Positions 13,258 through 52,580 of a DNA stretch of 64,000 nucleotides are shown here, piece after piece. Origin of the DNA: Candidatus Moraniibacteriota bacterium. Its GTDB lineage: Bacteria; Patescibacteriota; Minisyncoccia; Moranbacterales; UBA2206. The stretch covers positions 42,557-106,556 of the forward strand of contig JAAXWW010000004.1 of assembly GCA_013334765.1 (NCBI GenBank), read 5' to 3'. Each line of letters begins with the position of its first letter. The stretch's first letter is position 1. The position numbers were made by a program, and so were the translations under genes. Under the pieces are notes generated by a model that saw only the letters and a program-made list of their open reading frames with translations, had not been told where the DNA came from and did not search any database.

Positions 13258-14478
13258 TCAGTTAACGTTCTGCATCATGCCATAAATCGGCTGAAGCATC
13301 GACACGGCGAAAAATCCGACGCCGCCTCCAATCATTATCATGAGGACCGGCTCGATAATCGATGACATATTCTTTGATATCTGATCGACTTCGTCCTCGT
13401 AGAACTCGGCGAGCTTGAGAAGGACTACCTCCGTTTTTCCAGTCTCCTCGCCTACCGAGACCATCTGCGAAACCAGAAGAGGGAAAGCCAGCGTATTCTT
13501 CTTGATCACGACGCTCAGATTGACTCCTTTCTGGATCTCTTCCAGGCCCTCATTCATGGCACCTTTGTAATAATAATTCGTGAAGGTGTTGGCGAGGATG
13601 CGGAGCGATTCGGTAACCGGAACGCCGCTTCTTATGAGCGAGCTATAGATGCGCCCGAAACGGGCACAATTGACCTTGATAACGATGTTGCTGATGACCG
13701 GGATGTGCATTATGGTGAAAGCGAGCACCTTCTTCCCTGTCTCGGTCTTGAGAAAGATCTTAAGGAAAAAACCTGCTATGATAACAGCTATGGCTACTGG
13801 GATAGCATGAGCCCTCAGCATATCGCTAAGCGCCATCACGAATTTGGTCGAGGCAGGCAGCTCCACGTTCATATCCTTGAAAACCCCCAGTATCTTAGGA
13901 AGGATGAAAGTTAGCATGATGATAGCGATGCCTATCATGGCAACCAGGATGACTGCCGGATAAGTAAGCGCTCCCTTCACCTTGCTAGTGAGGCTGTGTT
14001 CCTTTTCGATCTGGATAGTCAGGATCTTCATGATTTCCTCCAGGCTTCCGCTGACTTCGCCGACTCGGATCATATTGACGAACATCTCGTCAAAAACTGC
14101 CGGATATTTGGCCAGGCCGTCGGCGAAAGTCATACCCGACTGGATGTCGGCGAATATGCTCTCCAGAATAGCCTTGAATCTTTTGTTCCTGGTCTGTTCT
14201 GAAATATTCTTCACTGCTCTTGATATCGGAAGGCCTGAAGATATCATGACGCTCATATTCTGAGTGAACATCAGCTTGTCTTTGAGGGATATGCCGAAAA
14301 AACGATCGAATATCTTTATATCCGCCGAACTTTTTTCTTCTCCTTTGACTTCCTTGAAAGAAGTCAGGATGAACCCGTCCGATCTGAGCTGCGCGGCCAG
14401 ATCGCGCTCATTCTTCACTTCTGCCTCACCACCCTTGGTTTCACCGGAATAGCTTTTCGCCGTATAGATTGCTTTCAT
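13258..14478 (-). CDS. pilC: type IV pilus / T2SS platform protein PilC (GspF family)
   Basis: 406 aa, two GspF repeats, 3 TM; canonical position next to pilB. Confidence 0.85.
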   Translation of the reverse strand: MKAIYTAKSYSGETKGGEAEVKNERDLAAQLRSDGFILTSFKEVKGEEKSSADIKIFDRFFGISLKDKLMFTQNMSVMISSGLPISRAVKNISEQTRNKRFKAILESIFADIQSGMTFADGLAKYPAVFDEMFVNMIRVGEVSGSLEEIMKILTIQIEKEHSLTSKVKGALTYPAVILVAMIGIAIIMLTFILPKILGVFKDMNVELPASTKFVMALSDMLRAHAIPVAIAVIIAGFFLKIFLKTETGKKVLAFTIMHIPVISNIVIKVNCARFGRIYSSLIRSGVPVTESLRILANTFTNYYYKGAMNEGLEEIQKGVNLSVVIKKNTLAFPLLVSQMVSVGEETGKTEVVLLKLAEFYEDEVDQISKNMSSIIEPVLMIMIGGGVGFFAVSMLQPIYGMMQNVN

Positions 14479-20500: not shown

Positions 20501-23329
20501 CTAGAGATATTTCCCTGTCACGCTCCTTTTGCAGCTCTTGAGCCCTTTGGGCGTTCCTGCATAGACAAGTTCGCCGCCTTTTTCTCCTCCCTCGGGACCC
20601 AGATCGATCACCCAATCGGAGTTCTTGACCACGTCCAGGTTGTGTTCGACAACCAGAACCGTATTCCCTTTATCGACAAGCGCGTCCAGGACCAGAAGCA
20701 ACTTCTTCACGTCTTCGAAATGCAGCCCGATTGTCGGCTCGTCAAGGACATACAGCGTCTTTCCGGTTGAACGGCGCGCCAGCTCGGTCGCCAACTTGAT
20801 CCTCTGCGCTTCCCCGCCGCTCATATCAGTCGCGCTCTGGCCGAGCTTAAGATAGCCCAATCCAACCGATTCCAATGTTTCCAATTTCTCAGCAATGAGT
20901 TTCGAATTCTTGAAAAAAGAATGCGCATAAGAAACGCTCATGTCGAGAACATCGGCTATGTTGACTCCGCGATATTCTATTTCCAAAGTCTTCTGGTTGT
21001 ATCTCGATCCTCCGCAGCTCTCGCATTTGACATACATATCCGGCAAGAGATGCATCTCTATCTTCCTGTTTCCGTCGCCCTGGCAATTCTCGCACCGACC
21101 GCCTTTCATGTTGAAACTGAAACGGCTGGCATCATAGCCGCGCCTCTTCGCTTCCTCCATCTCTGAAAAAAGCTCGCGTATGAGGGAGAACACTCCCGTA
21201 TAGGTCGCTGCGTTCGATCTGGGCGTGCGTCCGATCGGAGACTGATTGATGCTTATCACTTTATCGATATTCGAAAGCCCCGTTATTTTCTTGTGACGCC
21301 CAGGATTATCTTTGGAACCGAAGAAATGCTTGGACAAAGCCTTGGAAAGAATATCCCTTACCAGAGTCGATTTTCCGGAACCGGAAACACCAGTCACCGA
21401 AATGAATTTACCAAGCGGAATCTCTACATCGATATTTTTGAGATTATGCTCGCTAGCAGAATGAATCTTGATGGATTTACCATTCCCCTTCCGGCATTTC
21501 GTCTTTTCCGAGACTTTCAATTTCCCGCTCAGATATTTTCCCGTAAGAGTTTTGGCTTTGATCATTTTGGCATAATCTCCCTCGAAAATAACCTCACCGC
21601 CTTCTTCTCCAGCGCCAGGCCCCATGTCAATGACCCAATCGGCACGCCTTATGATCTCCTCATCATGTTCGACCACGATCAAAGAATTTCCTGCTGCGCG
21701 CAATTTTTCCATCGTGTCGATCAGTTTTTCCGTATCGCGATTGTGCAACCCCATCGACGGTTCATCAAGGACATACGTAATTCCGGAAAGCTCCGACCCT
21801 ATCTGGGTTGCCAGACGGATCCTTTGCCCCTCTCCTCCGGAAATCGAATCCGCTGAACGGGAAAGCGACAGATAATCAAGCCCGACGTTTTTGAGCGCCA
21901 TGGCTTTAAGTCTCATTTCTTTCACGAGCGGAAGTACCATCTCTTTTTTCATTTTGCTCCAAGCCGCATTTTCCGCCTCCGTCAAAAACTCCAGGAAACC
22001 TGAAATCGGGAGACTGACAACCTCGTCGATTGATTTTCCTAAAACCAAAACGGAAAGAAATTCGTTTCGAAGCCGTTGGCCTTTGCAGATCGGGCACGGC
22101 TTCTCGATTATGTATTTTTCGATATCGCTTCTTGAATGATTGCCATTGGCATCTTCGTATCTTTTTTTCATTATCGGAATCACGCCGTCAAATGGGATAT
22201 CCGGATCATTCGATCCATAGAGAACAGCGTTCAGATTTTCACGGCTGATTTTATTGACGGGAGTGCCCAGCGAAAATCCGCATTTCTCCCCCAAAGTTCT
22301 CAGAATATTCCCCCCATTCCCGAGCATCGAAAACTTCCCTCCGGACTTGTTCCAGGAAAGGATAGCCCCTTCCGAAAGTGAAAGGTTCTTGTTCGGAATG
22401 ATGAGATCCTCGTCGATTTCCCTGATGACTCCGAGTCCGGAACAATGAGGACAAGCTCCTTCGTGATTATTGAAAGAGAAATGCCGCGGAGAGATTTCCG
22501 GAAGTTTGAAATCGCATTTCGAGCAGATAAAATCACGGTTATACTGTTTCCCCGCCTCTCCGCTTTTAGCCACCATCATCGTTCCTTTCCCGAGTTTGAA
22601 AGCAGTTTCGACCGAATCCAATATCCGCTCCTTATCCGGATTCTTTTCGTTGTGGATTATCCTGTCCACCACAATTTCCACCACATCAAGCGCATCCAAT
22701 TCTTCTTCATTACCCTGATATGCTTCATCGAAAGTCATTATCTTCCCTCCGATCCTGAGCCTCGCGTATCCAAGCTGAGAAACGCTTCTCAAAATCTCTC
22801 TCGCATTTTTTCCTTTCTCGCGAATGATAGCGATGATAACTAGCTGGGTCTTGTCAGGGAAAAAGAAAATCTCTTCCAAAACTTCCCGATTGGAAATCTT
22901 CTTCATGGGAATCTTGCAATTCGGACAGTGCGGCGTTCCGATCTTAGCGAACATGACACGGAGATAATCGTATATTTCCGTAAGAGTTCCGACAGTCGAA
23001 CGAGGCGAACGGCTCAAGCTTTTCTGATCGATGGAAATAGTCGGCGTCAGATTCTCGATCTTGTCCACATCCGGTTTCGATCCAGAATCCAAAAACTGCC
23101 GAGCATAGCTCGACATACCTTCAAGATATCTCCTATTGCCCTCCGCATAAATGGCATCGAAAGCGAGCGATGACTTCCCCGATCCGGAAAGCCCAGTGAT
23201 AACCACCATCTTGTCGCGCGGAATCTCGACGTTCACATTCTTGAGATTATTCACCCGCGCGCCCCTGACTATTATCTTATCCCTTTTCGTCTCGTTCTTC
23301 ATCTTCCCCCTGGTTTGATTCTGCGCCAT
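20501..23329 (-). CDS. uvrA: excinuclease ABC subunit A (UvrA), copy 1; start trimmed to [20 protein letters not shown]
   Basis: Two ABC ATPase modules with Walker [10 protein letters not shown] / GVSGSGKST, signatures LSGGEGQR / LSGGEAQR, zinc-finger Cys motifs. Confidence 0.9.
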
Positions 23330-23495
23330 TTTGGTAAGTGAGTTTAAAAAGCGAAAAACACGTTTACAGGTAGAAATTCTACAGCAGTTTTTGGGAAATG
23401 TCAAAGGTTCGCATGACATAATGAGAAATTGTAAAATGCAACAGAAAGCAAAGAAACATAAATATGCAATAAATACCTATGATTGAAAAGCTTGC

Positions 23496-23626
23496 CGTCC
23501 GAGAAGTTATTTTCAGAATCATTGACTGAGCTCTACACAAAAACCACTTGCTATAAAAAACCGACAAGCAAAACTTACACCCGCAAAAGTCGCAATAATG
23601 ATTCTGAAAATAACTTCTCGGACGGT
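23496..23626. repeat. 131-bp inverted-repeat element: 29-bp perfect terminal IRs flanking the conserved core (ATTGACTGAG ... AACTTACAC-N9-TCGCAATAA)
   Basis: IR ccgtccgagaagttattttcagaatcatt / aatgattctgaaaataacttctcggacgg; core shared with the 39278 and 42483 elements. Confidence 0.7.
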
Positions 23627-25529: not shown

Positions 25530-28478
25530 TCATTTCTTTTTCAAAACATCCCTCAAATACTTCGCCGTCTCGCTCACTTCATGATATTTCGCCACTTCTT
25601 CGGGCGTTCCGGAAACAACCACTTTCCCACCACCCTCTCCGCCTTCCGGACCGAGATCGATTATCCAATCGGCCGTCTTGATGACATCCAGGTTATGTTC
25701 GATGACCACCACTGAATTTCCGGCATCCACCAAACGGCTGAGCACATCCAGAAGCTTCTTAATATCTTCGAAATGAAGCCCGGTAGTCGGTTCGTCCAGG
25801 ATATACAACGTATCCCCGGTTCCCCGCCTGGCAAGCTCGGTCGCCAATTTGATCCTCTGCGCTTCCCCTCCGGAAACCGTAGTCGCGCTCTGTCCCAATT
25901 GGATATATCCCAGACCCACGTCTTCAAGCGTTTTCAATTTAGAATATATCTCTGGAAAGTTCTTGAAGAATTCAGCCGCATCCGTGACGGTCATATCCAA
26001 AACATCGGAAACATTCTTTTCCTTGTATTTCACCTGCAGCGTCTCGCTGTTATATCTTTTTCCATGGCATACGTCGCAAGGAAGATAGACGTCCGGCATG
26101 AACTGCATTTCTATCTTATTGAATCCTTCCCCTTGGCAGTTATCGCATCTTCCGCCTTTCACATTGAAAGAGAATCTTCCCGGACCGTACCCTTTGGCTT
26201 TGGCATCGCGCGTCGCGGCGAAAAGCTCGCGGATCGGAGTGAACACTCCCGTATAGGTCGCAGGATTGGATCTCGGCGTTCTCCCGATGGGAGACTGATC
26301 GATCATGATCACTTTGTCTATATTCTCCACTCCGACGATTTCCTTGTGTTTCCCGGGCTTGTCCAGGCTCCTCATTATTTTCGAAGACAATCCTTTATAG
26401 AGAACGTCTTCCACTAACGTAGACTTCCCAGAACCCGATACCCCGGTCACGCAGGTAAAGACCTTGAGCGGAAATTCCACAGTGATGCTTTTGAGATTGT
26501 TCTCGGTAGCCTGCCTGACTATGACGGATTTCTTGTTCTTCATGGCGCGCCTGAAAGACGGGACGGATATTTCCAGATCGCCTCGAAGATATTTGGCGGT
26601 AAGCGATTTTCCTGATCTGATCACTTCTTGAGGCGTGCCGTGGGCCACGATCTCCCCTCCATGCTTGCCGGCACCCGGCCCGAAATCGACCAGATAATCC
26701 GCCGCTCGCATAGTCTCCTCGTCATGTTCCACCACGATCAAAGTGTTTCCGATATCGCGAAGGGAAAGAAGCGTGGAAAGCAATTTGGTATTATCGCGGG
26801 GATGGAGCCCGATCGACGGCTCGTCCAGGATATACAGAACGCCTGTAAGCTGCGAACCGATCTGAGACGCCAGGCGGATCCTCTGCGCTTCCCCGCCCGC
26901 CAATGTGGCGGCGCTGCGATGAAGCGTCAGATAGCCCAGTCCCACGTTTTCCAAAAATCCAAGCCTGTTCCAGATTTCTTTCAATATCCTTCCGGCAATC
27001 ATTTTCTCCCTATCCGAAAGGGAAAGCTCGCAGAAAAACGCCAGCGATTCCTTTATGCTTGTCTTTGAAACATCATAAATATTCCTATCCCTGAGGGTGA
27101 CCAATAGCGTCTCCTTCTTATATCTGGCTCCATGACAGGTCGAACAAGGATTCTGCGACATGTATTTCTCGATGTCAGTCCTCACGGCATCGGAATCCGT
27201 TTTCAGATACCTGTCCTGAAGATAGCCGACCACTCCCCGCCAATGCATGTTATATTTCCAGCTCGATCCGGTTTTCGATCGGAGCGTCACCGGAATATCG
27301 TCGGCCTCCTCTTCCGGAATCATATCGGTCGCGTCCGGCGAACCGAACATGAGCGTGTTGAAATCATCGTCGGACAGATCGCGAAGACGGATATTATCCC
27401 TTATGTGATAGTGATTGGTGACCGCTCGAAGGACCGTTCCCTGCCAATTGTTCTTCTTATAGCTCCACGGCATCAAACCGCCCTCGGCAATAGTCTTGTT
27501 CTTGTCCGGCGCCACCAGATCAGGATCGATTTCCTTTTTGAGTCCCAATCCTTCGCAATCAGGACAAGCCCCATACGGGCTGTTGAAAGAGAAAAGCCTC
27601 GGTTCCAATTCGGGGAATTCTATCTCATGCACCGGACAGGAAAAATTCTGATTGAAAATCATTTCCGCATCTGGATTCTCATCGCCCGCTTCAGTTTTTT
27701 TCGGTTTCGATTTCTTGCTATCGGATTTGATCTTGACTATCCCATGGGAAAGATTGAGCGCTTTTTCCACGTCCTCGAATATCCTGGCGATGTTCCCATC
27801 GCTCACTTCGACATCGTCGATAACGATGTCCACATCGTGCTTCTTATATCTCGCCAGCTTCACCTTCTCGCCCATCTTCGCGCTGAGCTCGTATCGCTTG
27901 CCATTGACATACGCATAGGAAAAACCGCGCTTATGCATATCCTCAAGAAGAGTCGAATATTCCCCCTTGCGGCCGCGGACCACCGGAGACAGGATCTCTA
28001 TCTTCGGACATTCAGCGCTCTTTATGGCAGCCTTCCCTCCTTTGAGGCATGCTTCAAGAATCCTATCCACGATCTCATCGACTGACAGTTTCACTATTTC
28101 GCGCCCGCATATCGGACAGTGCGCCACTCCGATCTTGGCATAAAGAAGACGCAGATAGTCATGGATTTCCGTTACCGTCCCGACAGTTGATCGAGGATTC
28201 CTCGAAGCCGATTTCTGATCGATGGAAATAGCCGGCGACAGTCCCTCGATAAGGTCCACGTCCGGTTTCTCCATCTTTCCCAAAAACTGCCGCGCATAAC
28301 TGGAAAGGCTTTCCAGATAGCGCCGTTGCCCTTCAGCGAATATGGTATCGAAAGCCAAAGTCGACTTCCCTGATCCGGAGAGGCCTGTGAAGATTATGAA
28401 TTTATTGCGAGGAAGATCGAGATCGATATTCTTGAGATTATGTTCCCTCGCCCCTCTTATGATTATTTTATCCTGCAT
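25530..28478 (-). CDS. uvrA: excinuclease ABC subunit A (UvrA), copy 2 (full length, 982 aa)
   Basis: MQDKIIIRGAREHNLKNI N-terminus; both ABC modules and signature motifs present; ~50% identical to copy 1 by eye. Confidence 0.9.
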   Translation of the reverse strand: MQDKIIIRGAREHNLKNIDLDLPRNKFIIFTGLSGSGKSTLAFDTIFAEGQRRYLESLSSYARQFLGKMEKPDVDLIEGLSPAISIDQKSASRNPRSTVGTVTEIHDYLRLLYAKIGVAHCPICGREIVKLSVDEIVDRILEACLKGGKAAIKSAECPKIEILSPVVRGRKGEYSTLLEDMHKRGFSYAYVNGKRYELSAKMGEKVKLARYKKHDVDIVIDDVEVSDGNIARIFEDVEKALNLSHGIVKIKSDSKKSKPKKTEAGDENPDAEMIFNQNFSCPVHEIEFPELEPRLFSFNSPYGACPDCEGLGLKKEIDPDLVAPDKNKTIAEGGLMPWSYKKNNWQGTVLRAVTNHYHIRDNIRLRDLSDDDFNTLMFGSPDATDMIPEEEADDIPVTLRSKTGSSWKYNMHWRGVVGYLQDRYLKTDSDAVRTDIEKYMSQNPCSTCHGARYKKETLLVTLRDRNIYDVSKTSIKESLAFFCELSLSDREKMIAGRILKEIWNRLGFLENVGLGYLTLHRSAATLAGGEAQRIRLASQIGSQLTGVLYILDEPSIGLHPRDNTKLLSTLLSLRDIGNTLIVVEHDEETMRAADYLVDFGPGAGKHGGEIVAHGTPQEVIRSGKSLTAKYLRGDLEISVPSFRRAMKNKKSVIVRQATENNLKSITVEFPLKVFTCVTGVSGSGKSTLVEDVLYKGLSSKIMRSLDKPGKHKEIVGVENIDKVIMIDQSPIGRTPRSNPATYTGVFTPIRELFAATRDAKAKGYGPGRFSFNVKGGRCDNCQGEGFNKIEMQFMPDVYLPCDVCHGKRYNSETLQVKYKEKNVSDVLDMTVTDAAEFFKNFPEIYSKLKTLEDVGLGYIQLGQSATTVSGGEAQRIKLATELARRGTGDTLYILDEPTTGLHFEDIKKLLDVLSRLVDAGNSVVVIEHNLDVIKTADWIIDLGPEGGEGGGKVVVSGTPEEVAKYHEVSETAKYLRDVLKKK

Positions 28479-39277: not shown

Positions 39278-39418
39278 GCGGAACGATAGCATGAGCCTTT
39301 TGAAATTATTGACTGAGCGGTTTATAGAAATCTGTTTATTTTACGGTTCAGCCACAAGAAAACTTACACTCATGCATGTCGCAATAAGAATTTCAAAAGG
39401 CTCATGCTATCGTTCCGC
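39278..39418. repeat. 141-bp inverted-repeat element (30-bp perfect IRs) with conserved core ATTGACTGAG ... AACTTACAC-N9-TCGCAATAAG
   Basis: IR gcggaacgatagcatgagccttttgaaatt / its reverse complement at 39389-39418. Confidence 0.7.
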
Positions 39419-42468: not shown

Positions 42469-42482
42469 ATTTTATCGAACTG

Positions 42483-42623
42483 CAGAAGGCTGAGATATCT
42501 GTTTTTGAAATTCTTATTGCGACATGCATGGGTGTAAGTTTTTCTTGCAGCTAAATTACACGAAGAGAGATTCCTGTAAAGCACTCAGTCAATAATTTCA
42601 AAAACAGATATCCCAGCCTTCTG
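42483..42623. repeat. 141-bp inverted-repeat element, same family as 39278..39418 and 23496..23626 but in inverted orientation
   Basis: 30-bp IRs (1 mismatch); core ttcttattgcgacatgcatgggtgtaagtt matches the other copies. Confidence 0.7.
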
Positions 42624-42694
42624 CCTCAAGCCAAAAATTGCCTAAAAACGGCTTTCGGGATAGAATGAAAATACTTTAAAGCTAGAAAAATACC

Positions 42695-43860: not shown

Positions 43861-44016
43861 GCAGCATCGCGTGTTTTTGCGCCATTGAACGAAAGCTGCA
43901 AATTACTGAAGTGAGATGATAAAAAACACAGATTGTGAAACAATCGTTTGTTTTTTGAATCGAACGTAAGATAATTTGCCTTGAGTGAAATAATGCGCAA
44001 AAACACGCGATGCTGC
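43861..44016. repeat. 156-bp element flanked by 22-bp perfect inverted repeats (gcagcatcgcgtgtttttgcgc)
   Basis: IR-L 43861-43882, IR-R 43995-44016; internal small palindrome gattgtgaaacaatc. Confidence 0.6.
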
Positions 44017-48287: not shown

Positions 48288-48791
48288 ATGAGATACGAAC
48301 TGCTGTTCCTAGTTGGAACATCCAAAGAGACCGAGCTGGAGAAAATCAAGAAGGACGTCTATGAGATCATCGAATCCAACGGCGGAGCCTTTGAAGAAAA
48401 AGAGGTCATCGAAAAAAGGAAGCTGGCCTATGAAGTCAGCCATGAGACTCATGGAAGCTATGTCGCCAGAAGATTCAATCTCGATGAATCCGACAAGATG
48501 AGCGACATCAACACCAAGCTGAACCTGTATACCGGGGTGCTGCGCTTCATGATAAGCAAGGCTTCAGAACTGCCTGAGCTCAAAACCAAGGAAGAAAGAA
48601 TGGGAATAGCCAAGGAAGCGGAAGAGAAGGAAGCCGCATCAATGGCAAGGGAACAAAAAGAAGAAGCTGAGAAAAAAGAAGCCAGCGAAAAGAAAGAGGA
48701 AGTCCAAGAAATCAAGAAGGAGAAGAAAAAGAAAACAGTAGCCGAACAGGAAGATATCGACAAGAAGATCGAGGAAATCCTCAACATCTAG
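48288..48791 (+). CDS. rpsF: 30S ribosomal protein S6 with a long Lys/Glu-rich C-terminal tail
   Basis: MRYELLFLV...KRKLAYEV core; first gene of rpsF-ssb-rpsR. Confidence 0.8.
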   Translation: MRYELLFLVGTSKETELEKIKKDVYEIIESNGGAFEEKEVIEKRKLAYEVSHETHGSYVARRFNLDESDKMSDINTKLNLYTGVLRFMISKASELPELKTKEERMGIAKEAEEKEAASMAREQKEEAEKKEASEKKEEVQEIKKEKKKKTVAEQEDIDKKIEEILNI

Positions 48792-48874: not shown

Positions 48875-49351
48875 ATGAACATAAACAAAGTCGTTCTAGT
48901 CGGCAGATTGACAAGAGACCCGGAAGTGAGAACCACCCCTTCAGGAAAGACCGTCGCTACGGTCTCGCTCGCAACCTCTTTCACATGGAAAGACGCGACC
49001 GGACAAAAGCAGGAAAAAACCGAATTCCACAACATAGTCATTTGGGGCAAGCTCGGTGAAATAGCCGGACAATACCTCATCAAGGGGCAGGAAGCATATT
49101 TCGAAGGAAGGCTTCAGACAAGGAAATATACCGGGAAAGACGGGATCGAAAGAAGGACGACTGAAATCGTCGCCGAAAACATGCAGCTCGGATCTAAACC
49201 GCAGGGAGCACCAAGAACCCCTAATTCCAGCTACCAAGCCCCTGCTCCATCAGCAGCTCCTGCGCAGCAGAAAGAAGCCCCGATGGAAGAAATCCCGACC
49301 ATCAATCTCGATGACGAGGAAGAAGTGAGAATCGAAGACGTGCCTTTTTAA
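48875..49351 (+). CDS. ssb: single-stranded DNA-binding protein
   Basis: OB-fold N-terminus (MNINKVVLVGRLTRDPEVR), acidic C-terminal tip ending DVPF. Confidence 0.9.
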   Translation: MNINKVVLVGRLTRDPEVRTTPSGKTVATVSLATSFTWKDATGQKQEKTEFHNIVIWGKLGEIAGQYLIKGQEAYFEGRLQTRKYTGKDGIERRTTEIVAENMQLGSKPQGAPRTPNSSYQAPAPSAAPAQQKEAPMEEIPTINLDDEEEVRIEDVPF

Positions 49352-49397: not shown

Positions 49398-49478
49398 CGT
49401 TTCCTTGCGAACATATTGTTTTTGCGGCTTCCGTGCGAAGCGAAAGGCAAGCAAAAATGATATGTTCGCAAGGAAACG
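49398..49478. repeat. 81-bp hairpin element (28-bp IR arms, conserved loop GGCTTCCGTG..GCGAAGCGAAAGGCAAG) inserted between ssb and rpsR
   Basis: Arms cgtttccttgcgaacatattgtttttgc / gcaaaaatgatatgttcgcaaggaaacg; paralog at 50361..50447. Confidence 0.65.
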
Positions 49479-49517
49479 ACCCCGTATTACTTAATAAGCA
49501 GTAACCTAAGCAAACCC

Positions 49518-49760
49518 ATGGCAAATTACAACAACCAAGACAGGAACAGCCAGCAAGAAAAGAAAGTCTGTCACTTCTGTCAGAACAGGATCGACAAGAT
49601 CGATTTCAAAGACGTATACCTTCTCCGCCGTTTCATGAATTCCCAAGGAAAAATATACAGCCCGAAAAGACACGGAACCTGCACCCGGCACCAAAGGATC
49701 CTCGCTAACGCGATCAAGAAAGCCAGGACCATGGCGCTCGTACCGTTCGTCGTGAAATAA
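49518..49760 (+). CDS. rpsR: 30S ribosomal protein S18
   Basis: Conserved S18 core (VCHFCQNRIDKIDFKDVYLLRRFMNSQGKIYSPKRHGTCTRHQR). Confidence 0.9.
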   Translation: MANYNNQDRNSQQEKKVCHFCQNRIDKIDFKDVYLLRRFMNSQGKIYSPKRHGTCTRHQRILANAIKKARTMALVPFVVK

Positions 49761-49778
49761 ACAGTAACCGAAAAGAAA

Positions 49779-50336
49779 ATGATAGGAATATCAGAAATAA
49801 AATCAGGAAAAACCATAATCCTGAATGGCGTTCCGTTCGCCGTCCTCTATCACGAACATTCGAAAACCGGACGCGCCGGATCAGTGCTCAGAACGAGGCT
49901 CAAGAACCTTGCCACCGGAGCCGTCCTCGAAAAGACATTCCAAGGCGCCGAACAAGTCGACGAGACCGAAATCAAGAAATCGAAAGCCCAATTCACCTAC
50001 AAAGAAGGCAACGACTACAATTTCATGGACACCGAGTCGTATGAACAGTTCTCGCTTTCAAAAGAAGTGCTCGGGGAAAACGTCGACTATCTGATCGAAG
50101 GCGCCGAAGTGCTGTTCCTCTATTTCAACGACAACCCCATAAACATTGAGCTTCCGGTCAAAATGACTTTCCGTGTCACAGACGCTCCGCCGGGAATCAA
50201 GGGCAACACCGTTTCAACCGGAGGAAAGCTCGTCACCATCGAGACCGGAAAGAAAATCGCTACTCCCCTTTTCGTAGAAGCCGGAGACAGCATAATCGTC
50301 AACACCGAAAAAGGAGAATACGTGAGCCGGGCATAA
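49779..50336 (+). CDS. efp: elongation factor P
   Basis: 185 aa, three OB/KOW-like domains; conserved loop ...HSKTGRAGS... (modified Lys/Arg position). Confidence 0.9.
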   Translation: MIGISEIKSGKTIILNGVPFAVLYHEHSKTGRAGSVLRTRLKNLATGAVLEKTFQGAEQVDETEIKKSKAQFTYKEGNDYNFMDTESYEQFSLSKEVLGENVDYLIEGAEVLFLYFNDNPINIELPVKMTFRVTDAPPGIKGNTVSTGGKLVTIETGKKIATPLFVEAGDSIIVNTEKGEYVSRA

Positions 50337-50360
50337 TAGACACGAAGATCGACACATCAA

Positions 50361-50447
50361 GTTTTCTCTCAAGCATAATCATTTTGCGGCTTCCGTGTGA
50401 GCGAAGCGAACGAAAGGCAAGTAAAATGATTATGCTTGAGAGAAAAC
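50361..50447. repeat. 87-bp hairpin element, paralog of 49398..49478, between efp and smpB
   Basis: Outer arm sequences differ but still pair (compensatory changes); inner arm + loop conserved (ATTTTGCGGCTTCCGTGTGAGCGAAGCGAACGAAAGGCAAGTAAAATGA). Confidence 0.65.
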
Positions 50448-50494
50448 TGGTCAAATAGAACCGCCCCGCTCCCTGTTTCTTTATTTTCCAATTT

Positions 50495-50941
50495 ATGAGT
50501 GTCCTAGCAATCAACAAACGAGCCGGTTTCGATTACTTCATTACCGACAAATATGAGGCCGGTTTGGTTTTGACAGGACAAGAGGTGAAATCAGTCAAAC
50601 TTGGGCATTTGAGCCTCAAGGAAAGTTTCGTCACCGTGAAAGGCAACGAGCTGTTCCTCACCAATACCCACATCTCGCCCTATAAGCATGCCGGGAACCT
50701 TCTAGGGTATAACCCGACGCGCCCCAGGAAGCTCCTAGTCAAAAAGTCCGAAATCCGCCATCTGACAGGGAAAATAAAGGAAAAAGGCTTGACATTAGTG
50801 CCGATTCGAGTATATACTAAAGGGCGACTAGTGAAATTGGAATTCGGAATAGGAAAAGGGAAGAAACAGTTCGATAAGCGCGAAGATACGGCAAAAAAAG
50901 AGGCCCGGAGAAGCATGGAAAGAGCGCTCAAGAACAGCTAG
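50495..50941 (+). CDS. smpB: SsrA-binding protein SmpB
   Basis: 148 aa, SmpB fold motifs (NKRAGFDYFI..., ...GKGKKQFDKRE). Confidence 0.9.
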   Translation: MSVLAINKRAGFDYFITDKYEAGLVLTGQEVKSVKLGHLSLKESFVTVKGNELFLTNTHISPYKHAGNLLGYNPTRPRKLLVKKSEIRHLTGKIKEKGLTLVPIRVYTKGRLVKLEFGIGKGKKQFDKREDTAKKEARRSMERALKNS

Positions 50942-50954
50942 CCACACCCAAATC

Positions 50955-51345
50955 GGGGATGTTTGGCTTCGACAGATTGTACGTTTAAAATATGCAAGCC
51001 GAAGTCGATGGGTCTTCGCAAAAAACCATCAAACGTCATAAGTGCAAACTTATACACAAAAGCAAGAACTGCAATGGCGCAAGCCTTTTCAGCCAACTTC
51101 GCTACCGCTTTAGCCTAACAAGGCTTTAGCCATCGAACTTCCGATTCCTGATAGGAAGACCTCGGTGCCAAATATCAGGATGGTCGTCCTTGTCCTCTTC
51201 TTGCAAGTTCGATAAGAAAAGATGAAGATAGAACGGGGTTATTTTTCCTGCTTCCTACCCCCGCTCGAAAAAAATAAGCAGGATACGCTTGTAGATTATT
51301 TTGAATGAACAGTTATGGACGCGAGTTCAATTCTCGCCATCTCCA
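50955..51345 (+). ncRNA. ssrA: tmRNA (SsrA); tRNA-like domain at both ends, tag reading frame ending ...ANFATALA-TAA at 51118; CCA not encoded
   Basis: 5' GGGGATG pairs with 3' CATCTCC-A; T-arm GGACGCGAGTTCAATTCTCGCC; Ala-rich tag frame with ALA* terminus; adjacent to smpB. Confidence 0.8.
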
Positions 51346-51347
51346 CA

Positions 51348-51929
51348 ATAATAATATTTAAGGACAAACCTATCAGAAGGACATTCCACCGGCGCCCTGT
51401 TCAGAAAAAGGAGCCCGAACACAAAATAAACGAACGCATCCGGGCTTTGGAAGTTCGGCTCATCGGCGAAAACGGCGAGCAGTTCGGAGTGATACCGACC
51501 CAGGAAGCATTGGCAATGGCTCAAGAGCAATCCCTTGACCTGGTCGAGGTATCGCCGAAATCAGTTCCGCCCGTATGCCGCATCATGGATTATGGCAAAT
51601 TCCAATACCAGCAATCCAAACAGGAAAAGATCCATAAGGTCAAACAGAAGAAATCGGAAATAAAAGGAATCCGCATAGGAGCCAGGACCGACGAGCATGA
51701 CCTCAATTTCAAAAAGGATCAGGCTGAAAAATTCCTGACCAAAGGAAACAAAGTGAAGGTTGAAATAATCCTGCGCGGACGGGAGAAAGCCTATCAGGAT
51801 CTCGCCAGGCAGAACCTCCATAATTTCATCAAGAACATAACCGCCCCCTACAAGATAGAACAGGAGATCAAAAGATTCCCGGGCGGATTCAATGTCATAA
51901 TAACCCCTGAAATAATTGCTAAGCAATAA
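51348..51929 (+). CDS. infC: translation initiation factor IF-3; non-ATG start (in-frame ATA codons at 51348/51351/51354), exact start uncertain
   Basis: INERIRALEVRLIGENGEQ N-domain and C-domain conserved; infC-rpmI-rplT order; the ATG of the ORF track lies inside the tmRNA 3' end. Confidence 0.75.
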   Translation: MIIFKDKPIRRTFHRRPVQKKEPEHKINERIRALEVRLIGENGEQFGVIPTQEALAMAQEQSLDLVEVSPKSVPPVCRIMDYGKFQYQQSKQEKIHKVKQKKSEIKGIRIGARTDEHDLNFKKDQAEKFLTKGNKVKVEIILRGREKAYQDLARQNLHNFIKNITAPYKIEQEIKRFPGGFNVIITPEIIAKQ

Positions 51930-52544: not shown

Positions 52545-52580
52545 AAAAAATCCTCTGCCTAGGCAGAGGATTTTTTTATT
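52545..52580. terminator. Bidirectional rho-independent terminator (palindromic stem, A-tract / T-tract on either side)
   Basis: aaaaaatcctctgcc-tagg-cagaggattttttt. Confidence 0.7.

Follow-up and report, generated by a model that had tools for sequence, protein, structure and literature searches.

Why do long, nearly perfect hairpins interrupt operons of essential genes in a small bacterial genome? This question is raised by a 64,000-nucleotide stretch of a Candidatus Moraniibacteriota genome (contig JAAXWW010000004.1; the whole stretch is referred to here as the window), in which one hairpin lies between ssb and rpsR (copy 1) and another between efp and smpB (copy 2). Members of the Candidate Phyla Radiation (CPR), or Patescibacteria, have genomes of about 1 Mb that are thought to be poor in repetitive or mobile DNA. 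Comparison with relatives shows that the ssb–rpsR and efp–smpB spacers acquired the elements only once this lineage had split from relatives in which these spacers are 26–39 nt long. The reading preferred here, with a probability of about 0.5, is that the hairpins belong to a family of non-autonomous palindromic elements, ~80–90 nt long and REPIN/ERIC-like, that has not been described before and is dispersed and insertion-polymorphic in Moranbacteria. The novelty lies in the family itself; palindromic intergenic repeat elements are already known as a kind.

The evidence for insertion comes from orthologous spacers. Synteny around the hairpin sites is conserved in relatives, and the relative whose elongation factor P (EF-P) is 94% identical carries both copies. 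In a 91% relative, the efp–smpB spacer is only 39 nt long. The ssb–rpsR and efp–smpB spacers measure 29 and 26 nt in an 87% relative, and the ssb–rpsR spacer measures 34 nt in an 82% relative (L144); the same two spacers span 166 nt and 158 nt in the window. A third site is provided by xseA–xseB, which is occupied in L154 (a 20.6-kb locus around L124) and is only 31 nt long in the relative L155. Empty spacers of 26–39 nt have thus been found at three sites, in relatives with 81–91% identical flanking proteins, which identifies the elements as insertions.

Copies of the element were sought in genomes with a 16-mer, in metagenome contigs with an anchored pattern, and with a covariance model (R1) built from 11 copies. 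Fourteen further copies were found in other Moranbacteria sequences; two are orthologous to the window copies, one is truncated and one is decayed. The bare 16-mer scan returned at least 119 loci and, among the matches listed, all were chance matches except L097, a true copy in the mraZ–rsmH spacer of a Moraniibacteriota metagenome-assembled genome. The anchored scan returned nine true copies together with three chance matches in coding DNA. The R1 search added the two orthologous copies of the close relative (L133/L134) and two further copies in L154, one of them decayed. Over the 64-kb window, R1 detected no copy beyond the two; a weak match at 61965–62032 was rejected as an unrelated hairpin. 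A scan of viral contigs and a phage BLAST search gave no matches, and the element is not phage-borne. A literature search found no publication on hairpins in Moranbacteria.

All copies are intergenic and lie among unrelated housekeeping genes. The preliminary description of this DNA, made from the letters alone, had suggested a small mobile repeat targeting ribosomal and translation-factor operons. The mobile repeat is supported by the copies in other Moranbacteria, the empty orthologous sites, the decayed copies and the occurrence of both orientations. The targeting is contradicted by the contexts of the other copies, which comprise mraZ–rsmH, parB–parA, grpE–dnaK, atpE–atpF, xseA–xseB, sites beside gyrB and alaS, and divergent promoter regions. 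A search for more copies had also been proposed, with their absence everywhere named as grounds for giving the idea up; the copies found remove that objection. Two of them, L128 and L129, have arms that look like those of the window copies and were considered as their orthologs. This was rejected, since they sit in the grpE–dnaK and atpE–atpF spacers and are therefore paralogous copies. Copies tend to cluster, with two within 1 kb in the window and three within 4.3 kb in L154, and neighbours share orientation. Two copies were counted in the 64-kb window, three in the 20.6 kb of L154, and none in 83 kb from 81–87% relatives. Decay is seen in the L154 copy at 14063–14158 (46 bits), and mismatches are also present in the L134 copy.

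The two hairpins of the window are built as follows.

49398–49478, + strand: copy 1, whole hairpin, 81 nt, in the ssb–rpsR spacer; R1 score 84.4 bits, E 7.6e-16.
49398–49425, + strand: copy 1, 5' arm, 28 nt, pairing with 49451–49478 through 26 Watson-Crick pairs and a tandem U.G/G.U.
49426–49450, + strand: copy 1, apical domain in its short form, with P2 GCU/GGC, internal loop UCCG/AAA, a 3-bp P3 and a GAA triloop, without the 8-nt tandem-G.A extension.
49451–49478, + strand: copy 1, 3' arm, 28 nt.
50360–50448, + strand: copy 2, whole hairpin, 89 nt, in the efp–smpB spacer; R1 score 105.7 bits, E 1.9e-20.
50360–50387, + strand: copy 2, 5' arm, 28 nt, forming 27 Watson-Crick pairs and a closing G.U.
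50388–50420, + strand: copy 2, apical domain in its long form, with P2 GCU/GGC, internal loop UCCG/AAA, P3 (U.G, G-C, U-A, tandem G.A/A.G, G-C, C-G) and a GAA triloop.
50421–50448, + strand: copy 2, 3' arm, 28 nt.

Both stems are near-perfect, with 28 pairs each, of which two are G.U in copy 1 and one in copy 2. The hairpins are present at the sites named in the preliminary description, which gave the limits of copy 1 correctly and those of copy 2 one base too narrow on each side, and they fold far beyond chance. RNA folding z-scores are -9.55 for copy 1 and -9.56 for copy 2, none of 200 shuffles being as stable, and DNA folding gives -8.5 and -8.1. The tip and the inner stem are common to the two copies. 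The outer arms are ~63% identical in register, and all differences are compensated on the opposite arm. The covarying arms reported earlier are thus borne out, yet at this identity the arms are not unrelated. The common tip reported earlier also stands, while the formula given for the shared inner sequence implied a tip difference of 6 nt and the measured difference is 8 nt (GTGCGAAGCGAAAGG in copy 1 vs GTGTGAGCGAAGCGAACGAAAGG in copy 2). Copy 1 lacks these 8 nt of the tip helix and keeps the triloop, a change of helix length that preserves the fold.

The same fold was found in all copies, with a stem of 24–31 pairs. The base of the stem is weakly conserved (GTTTYC...GRAAAC), the middle differs in every copy and is compensated, and the inner stem is conserved and A/T-rich (ATATTGTTTTTTT-GC). 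Above it, the apical domain begins with a 1x2 internal loop. Next come the 3-bp helix GCU/GGC, whose U.G pair is invariant, the internal loop UCCG/AAA and finally the tip helix. This last helix runs U.G, G-C, U-A, tandem G.A/A.G, G-C, C-G and is closed by a GNA triloop. In a 16-copy alignment fitted to the R1 model, standard pairs occupy 95.4% of cells, compared with 43–50% when the 3' partner is slid by 1–3 columns. Changes on both sides were seen in 22 of 35 pairs, and the covariation score is 0.49, against 0.07–0.10 in the slid controls. An independent MAFFT/RNAalifold analysis recovered the same structure with 20 of 35 pairs compensated. Covariation extends to the apical domain: pair 42/56 is G-C in 12 copies, A-U in two and G.U in two, and pair 46/52 is G-C in seven copies and A-U in six. 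Averaged over pairs of copies, identity falls from 0.90 in the inner part to 0.53 in the outer arms; the inner value is inflated by the exact anchors that the scans required. Between non-orthologous copies, arm identity reaches 0.72–0.80, which indicates that whole hairpins were duplicated and not the core alone.

The two strands of the element are not equivalent. At non-Watson-Crick stem positions, the element + strand carries 16 G.T/T.G and only four A.C/C.A, three of the latter in one decaying copy. The + strand is the more stable of the two in 14 of 15 copies when folded with RNA parameters, at a mean difference of -5.4 kcal/mol from its complement, and in 12 of 15 with DNA parameters (mean -1.9 kcal/mol). 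The excess of G.T and the better folding of the + strand suggest that the relevant form is one particular single strand, RNA or DNA.

Together, these observations fit the proposed family of non-autonomous palindromic elements. In such a scheme the whole hairpin would be the unit copied, as mobile DNA without an enzyme of its own. Propagation, or recognition by a trans-acting protein, would need one strand folded into the hairpin, and the apical domain would be the recognition site, as in the logic of REPINs and their RAYT transposases. The window copies would be co-transcribed with the operon, placing a 28-bp double-stranded RNA (dsRNA) hairpin in the mRNA, and RNase III processing or 3'-end stabilisation by this putative hairpin is plausible. 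The genes of the cluster and their distances to the hairpins are given below.

48288–48791, + strand: rpsF, first gene of the co-oriented cluster.
48875–49351, + strand: ssb (PF00436), stop codon 46 nt 5' of copy 1.
49518–49760, + strand: rpsR (S18; PF01084), start 39 nt 3' of copy 1.
49779–50336, + strand: efp, stop codon 23 nt 5' of copy 2.
50495–50941, + strand: smpB, start 46 nt 3' of copy 2; PF01668 on the orthologous genes in L136 and L137.
50955–51348, + strand: transfer-messenger RNA (tmRNA), last in the order rpsF-ssb-rpsR-efp-smpB-tmRNA.

Several results weigh against this reading. Copy number is low, with two copies in 64 kb and at least five exact-anchor copies on ~580 kb of contigs. 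Among the copies compared, no near-identical non-orthologous pair was found, and there is no sign of recent transposition. Of the genes examined in the window (64 kb) and in short loci, none is a transposase, and no enzyme that could mobilise the element was identified among them. In occupied spacers, 56–85 nt of extra length are not explained by the hairpin itself, which leaves the insertion boundaries undefined. Neither a target-site duplication nor a target motif was consistent across copies. Orientation follows neither transcription nor, with any consistency, replication: relative to flanking genes, six copies are sense, six antisense and two ambiguous. Finally, copy 1 is better conserved than a purely selfish, inactive insertion should be. 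At 4-fold degenerate sites, the window genome and the 94% relative have diverged by 0.29 (45/153). Copy 1 differs from its ortholog at only one of 81 bases, in a flanking spacer that is 52–70% identical (P ~2e-11 under neutrality), and this conservation points to selection in place. Copy 2 differs from its L134 ortholog at 16 aligned positions (~18%), with compensated changes in the arms, one compensated apical pair and a few new mismatches. In these comparisons, copy 1 behaves like a functional element and copy 2 like a structure-constrained but drifting one.

Candidate target duplications and a link between orientation and replication were rejected. Duplications seen by eye at L128 (ACTCAAT), L129 (AATTTCTTTT) and L097 (TCTC(T)AA) did not generalise. 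A direct 7-nt flanking repeat (ACTCAAT) occurs only at L128; elsewhere the matches are 4–9 nt long, at inconsistent distances and in AT-rich sequence. GC skew read in the orientation of the element is negative in every locus of at least 2 kb first compared, which had suggested that orientation follows replication. The element + strand lies on the C-rich strand in the window and in L128 and on the G-rich strand in L154, and the idea was abandoned on account of the three L154 copies. Across window positions 1–64000, GC skew is negative throughout (-0.034 for + strand genes, -0.116 for - strand genes), which makes the + strand the C-rich (lagging) strand and places the cluster from rpsF to rplT (~48.3–52.5 kb) head-on to the inferred replication. 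The coding strand changes near 36.8 kb and again near 52.6 kb of the window.

How else could these hairpins be explained? The chief alternative, possible though less probable than the mobile family, is a structured RNA selected by the host, which draws on the conservation of copy 1 (80/81 against 29% neutral divergence, with diverged flanks). Here the element would be transcribed, and either its apical domain would bind a host protein or its 28-bp stem would be an RNase III site, uncoupling or stabilising the mRNAs of neighbouring genes; it would have spread by duplication and now be kept by host selection. The strong covariation, apical helices included, agrees with this, as do the invariant U.G at two apical positions, the recurrent G.U in the stem and the larger + strand advantage with RNA than with DNA parameters (-5.4 vs -1.9 kcal/mol). 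Both window copies are also sense to a cluster with a single terminator call (52545–52576), and -10-like hexamers stand 5–8 nt upstream of some copies. However, such promoter-like sites are no commoner than in a mirrored control and are missing at copy 2, so that no consistent promoter of the element's own was found. Half of the 12 assignable copies are antisense, which puts the conserved strand outside the mRNA. Close relatives run the same essential operons with 26–39-nt spacers, and copy 2 and L154c are decaying. Nor did Rfam 15 return a match at gathering threshold; at a permissive E-value it gave just generic miRNA-precursor hairpins, at 20–36 bits against thresholds of 50–99. The independence of orientation from transcription would be expected of a double-stranded DNA site whose asymmetric core binds a nucleoid, partition or replication protein, with the palindrome kept by template switching during replication (quasipalindrome correction) and not by selection. 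Stems that stay perfect despite 47% arm divergence between copies fit this idea, and locus-specific pairing beyond the homologous stem (ACGG/CCGT in the window, ATACTGA/TCAGTAT in L133) fits outward growth of the palindrome. Even so it is improbable. Template switching has no means of preserving apical helices that are not palindromic, yet two of their pairs covary from G-C to A-U; the bias of G.T over A.C and the one-strand folding advantage in 14 of 15 copies are left unexplained; and copy 1 has no compensated changes where ~8 are expected under neutral conversion.

The preliminary description had also raised an attenuator. A very stable hairpin between co-oriented genes invites this interpretation, in which an intrinsic terminator or attenuator would govern whether transcription of ssb continues into rpsR, and that of efp into smpB, but of all the accounts it deserves the least credence: the hairpins are not terminators or attenuators. 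Neither strand has a T-run after the stem; a T-run lies ahead of the tip and an A-run behind it, and beyond the stems the DNA reads ACCCCGTA and GGTCAAAT. A terminator scan called neither hairpin; its only call in the cluster was a classical terminator at 52545–52576, with the A-run, GC-stem and T-run typical of this genome's real terminators. The same element is antisense in other operons and occurs in divergent promoter regions, and it is missing from the same operons in relatives. A more speculative and rather doubtful proposal, still above the DNA site in likelihood, treats the conserved tip, borne on a stem that is strictly paired whatever its sequence, as the handle of an undescribed CPR system. 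This might be a hairpin element that moves as single-stranded DNA or RNA with a tip-reading enzyme, or a domesticated protein-binding RNA module that segments operon transcripts. If it is true, copy 1 would have taken on a function in the rpsF-ssb-rpsR operon and for that reason have stayed almost unchanged while neutral sites diverged by 29%.

Is the proposed mobile family a known one under another name? Among the closest parallels are REPINs, which are doublets of repetitive extragenic palindromic (REP) sequences that form hairpins and are mobilised by RAYT tyrosine (Y1 HUH) transposases; each REP ends with a GTAG or CGTC tag. Like them, the Moranbacteria elements are ~80–100-nt intergenic hairpins of inverted halves, dispersed, sometimes clustered and non-coding. 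Mobilisation of the RAYT/IS200 type would fit the absence of a consistent target duplication. In both systems a single-stranded hairpin is the inferred relevant form and compensatory changes occur, being frequent across REPIN hairpins (PMC3116915). No GTAG or CGTC tag was found at the ends of the copies, which start with CGTTTCC, AGTTTTC, GCTTTCC, TTTATGC and similar sequences. REPINs conserve the REP ends and vary the middle, whereas the Moranbacteria element conserves the apical middle and varies the mid-stem. REPINs number tens to hundreds per genome, and the Moranbacteria element probably has tens of copies at most. A REPIN family also has its cognate RAYT gene in the same genome; none was seen among the genes examined in the window and short loci.

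ERIC sequences (or IRU) are 127-bp imperfect palindromes of enterobacteria that are found in transcribed operon spacers, in either orientation and patchily at orthologous sites, and their copies are often conserved better than the surrounding spacer. ERIC is not known to have a transposase or a target duplication. The Moranbacteria element behaves like ERIC in siting, orientation, patchiness and conservation relative to the spacer. There is no sequence relationship, however, the host phyla differ, and ERIC is conserved over its full length where the Moranbacteria stems are copy-specific and covarying. Miniature inverted-repeat transposable elements (MITEs) derived from DDE transposons end in conserved inverted repeats, which correspond to those of a parent insertion sequence (IS), and are flanked by short target-site duplications. 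The Correia elements (MITEs of Neisseria), RUP, BOX and Nezha resemble the Moranbacteria element in being small, non-coding, intergenic and insertion-polymorphic. They are co-transcribed as long hairpins, as the Moranbacteria element presumably is, and Correia hairpins are RNase III substrates. The Moranbacteria element is small and non-coding and is present or absent at orthologous sites, as a MITE would be. Its termini, by contrast, are weakly conserved (outer arms 53%, inner part 90%), and neither a consistent duplication nor a parent IS was seen. The element was filed neither as a REPIN nor as a MITE because the tag, conserved termini and target duplications of these classes are lacking and because conservation is distributed the other way round, the tip being constant and the stem variable. 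Palindromic and double-hairpin repeats of organelles are similar in that several unrelated families occupy the short spacers of a compact genome, with nested insertions. They differ in their organelle hosts and their unrelated sequences, and most are short GC-rich hairpins that lack a structured, conserved tip.

More distant systems were considered and set aside. TIGR-Tas systems consist of tandem arrays beside a tas (Nop-domain) gene, the units carrying two 9-nt spacers that do not covary, and include stem-loop variants with variable palindromic stems (PMC12045711). Conserved segments alternate with variable ones in both TIGR arrays and the hairpins, and both occur in Patescibacteria. The hairpins stand singly between housekeeping genes, and each variable segment is the complement of the other; a TIGR array was rejected. 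Integron attC sites lie between cassettes near an integrase, starting 5' with RYYYAAC and finishing 3' with GTTRRRY. This identity was also dismissed, as the ends GTTTYC...GRAAAC have the opposite arrangement and the flanks are core housekeeping genes. A K-turn or box C/D-like tip was excluded since the tandem G.A pairs have no adjacent 3-nt bulge, and a small open reading frame (ORF) since the short frames that open with ATG in the 3' arm lack conservation from one copy to the next. An RNA like that of the signal recognition particle was likewise considered and rejected.

The family is not the only source of hairpins in these genomes. At least three other long-hairpin types lie between housekeeping genes of the window, and in relatives the same operon spacers contain unrelated giant hairpins, down to -111 kcal/mol. 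The L136 rpsR–efp spacer, for instance, is 233 nt long (273–505) and folds at -107 kcal/mol. Others, located in part in ssb–rpsR and rpsR–efp, are the following.

L141, 2431–2623: giant hairpin.
L141, 2867–3000: giant hairpin.
L149, 9313–9555: giant hairpin.
L149, 9799–10000: giant hairpin.
L149, 10927–11188: giant hairpin.

L141 and L149 share a hairpin family of CCTCTCCCTTAGGGAGAGG type, and in the L149 ssb–rpsR spacer an extra GC-rich hairpin is nested inside such an element. The several families in the window and its relatives suggest that Moranbacteria spacers have been colonised by several palindromic families.

These findings bear on how CPR genomes are read. Spacers of Moranbacteria, those of essential operons included, host several long-hairpin families, and hairpin elements of this kind can be mistaken for regulatory RNAs. 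The clear covariation and conserved tip of one family imply a dedicated trans-acting partner. If found, the partner protein would reveal a mobilisation mechanism or else an mRNA-processing module, in either case a new one, in a phylum that is uncultivated. The R1 covariance model makes a genome-wide census straightforward.

Further features were noted in the course of the analysis. Family 1 hairpins, 131–143 nt long, lie in the window at 23495–23625, 39278–39418 and 42482–42624 (the last in reverse orientation), in the uvrA–uvrC, oppA-like–pgi and RNase J–tRNA-synthetase spacers. Their architecture matches that of the main family: the outer arms are complementary yet particular to each copy, while the inner arm TTTTGAAATT and a centre of ~75 nt are conserved. 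A composite transposon formed by the inverted Family 1 copies at 39.3 and 42.5 kb was rejected, the intervening genes being pgi and RNase J. A 141-nt hairpin at 35304–35444 has perfect 28-nt arms (TGTCATTCCCGCGAAGGCGGGAATCCAG), a 54-nt hairpin at 2114–2167 has the shared arm start TGTCATTCCCGC, and a 156-nt hairpin at 43861–44016 lies between class I tRNA synthetase and phosphoglucomutase-family genes. Short-read contigs end inside a hairpin copy at the 3' ends of L001/L152, L133 and L135 and start inside one at the 5' ends of L135 and L121; the palindromes appear to break de Bruijn assemblies of these organisms. The efp–smpB interval is a recurrent insertion site. In L141 (3656–4995) and L142, from the 82% relative, it contains three extra genes, including an AbiEii-like/DUF6922 pair, and in L149 it has gained a small Zn-ribbon ORF.

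Elsewhere in the window, the ORFs at 20501–23419 and 25530–28478 (972 and 982 aa) are paralogous, with many direct-repeat blocks of 64–85% identity and an internal duplication; from their sequences they look like paralogues of a UvrA-like ABC ATPase beside uvrC and uvrB. A 50-nt leader is repeated at 90% identity at 62033–62082 and 62673–62722 (CCGCAT.CTCCCG.GCGAATCGGGAGACGAAAGAAGGAGAA). It comprises a small hairpin and a strong Shine-Dalgarno sequence directly 5' of two consecutive ORFs; most genes of the window have no such Shine-Dalgarno sequence. The region's best sigma-70-like match (TTGACA-18-TATACT, 11/12) is at 50789–50818, in the 3' part of smpB and ~140 nt upstream of the tmRNA.

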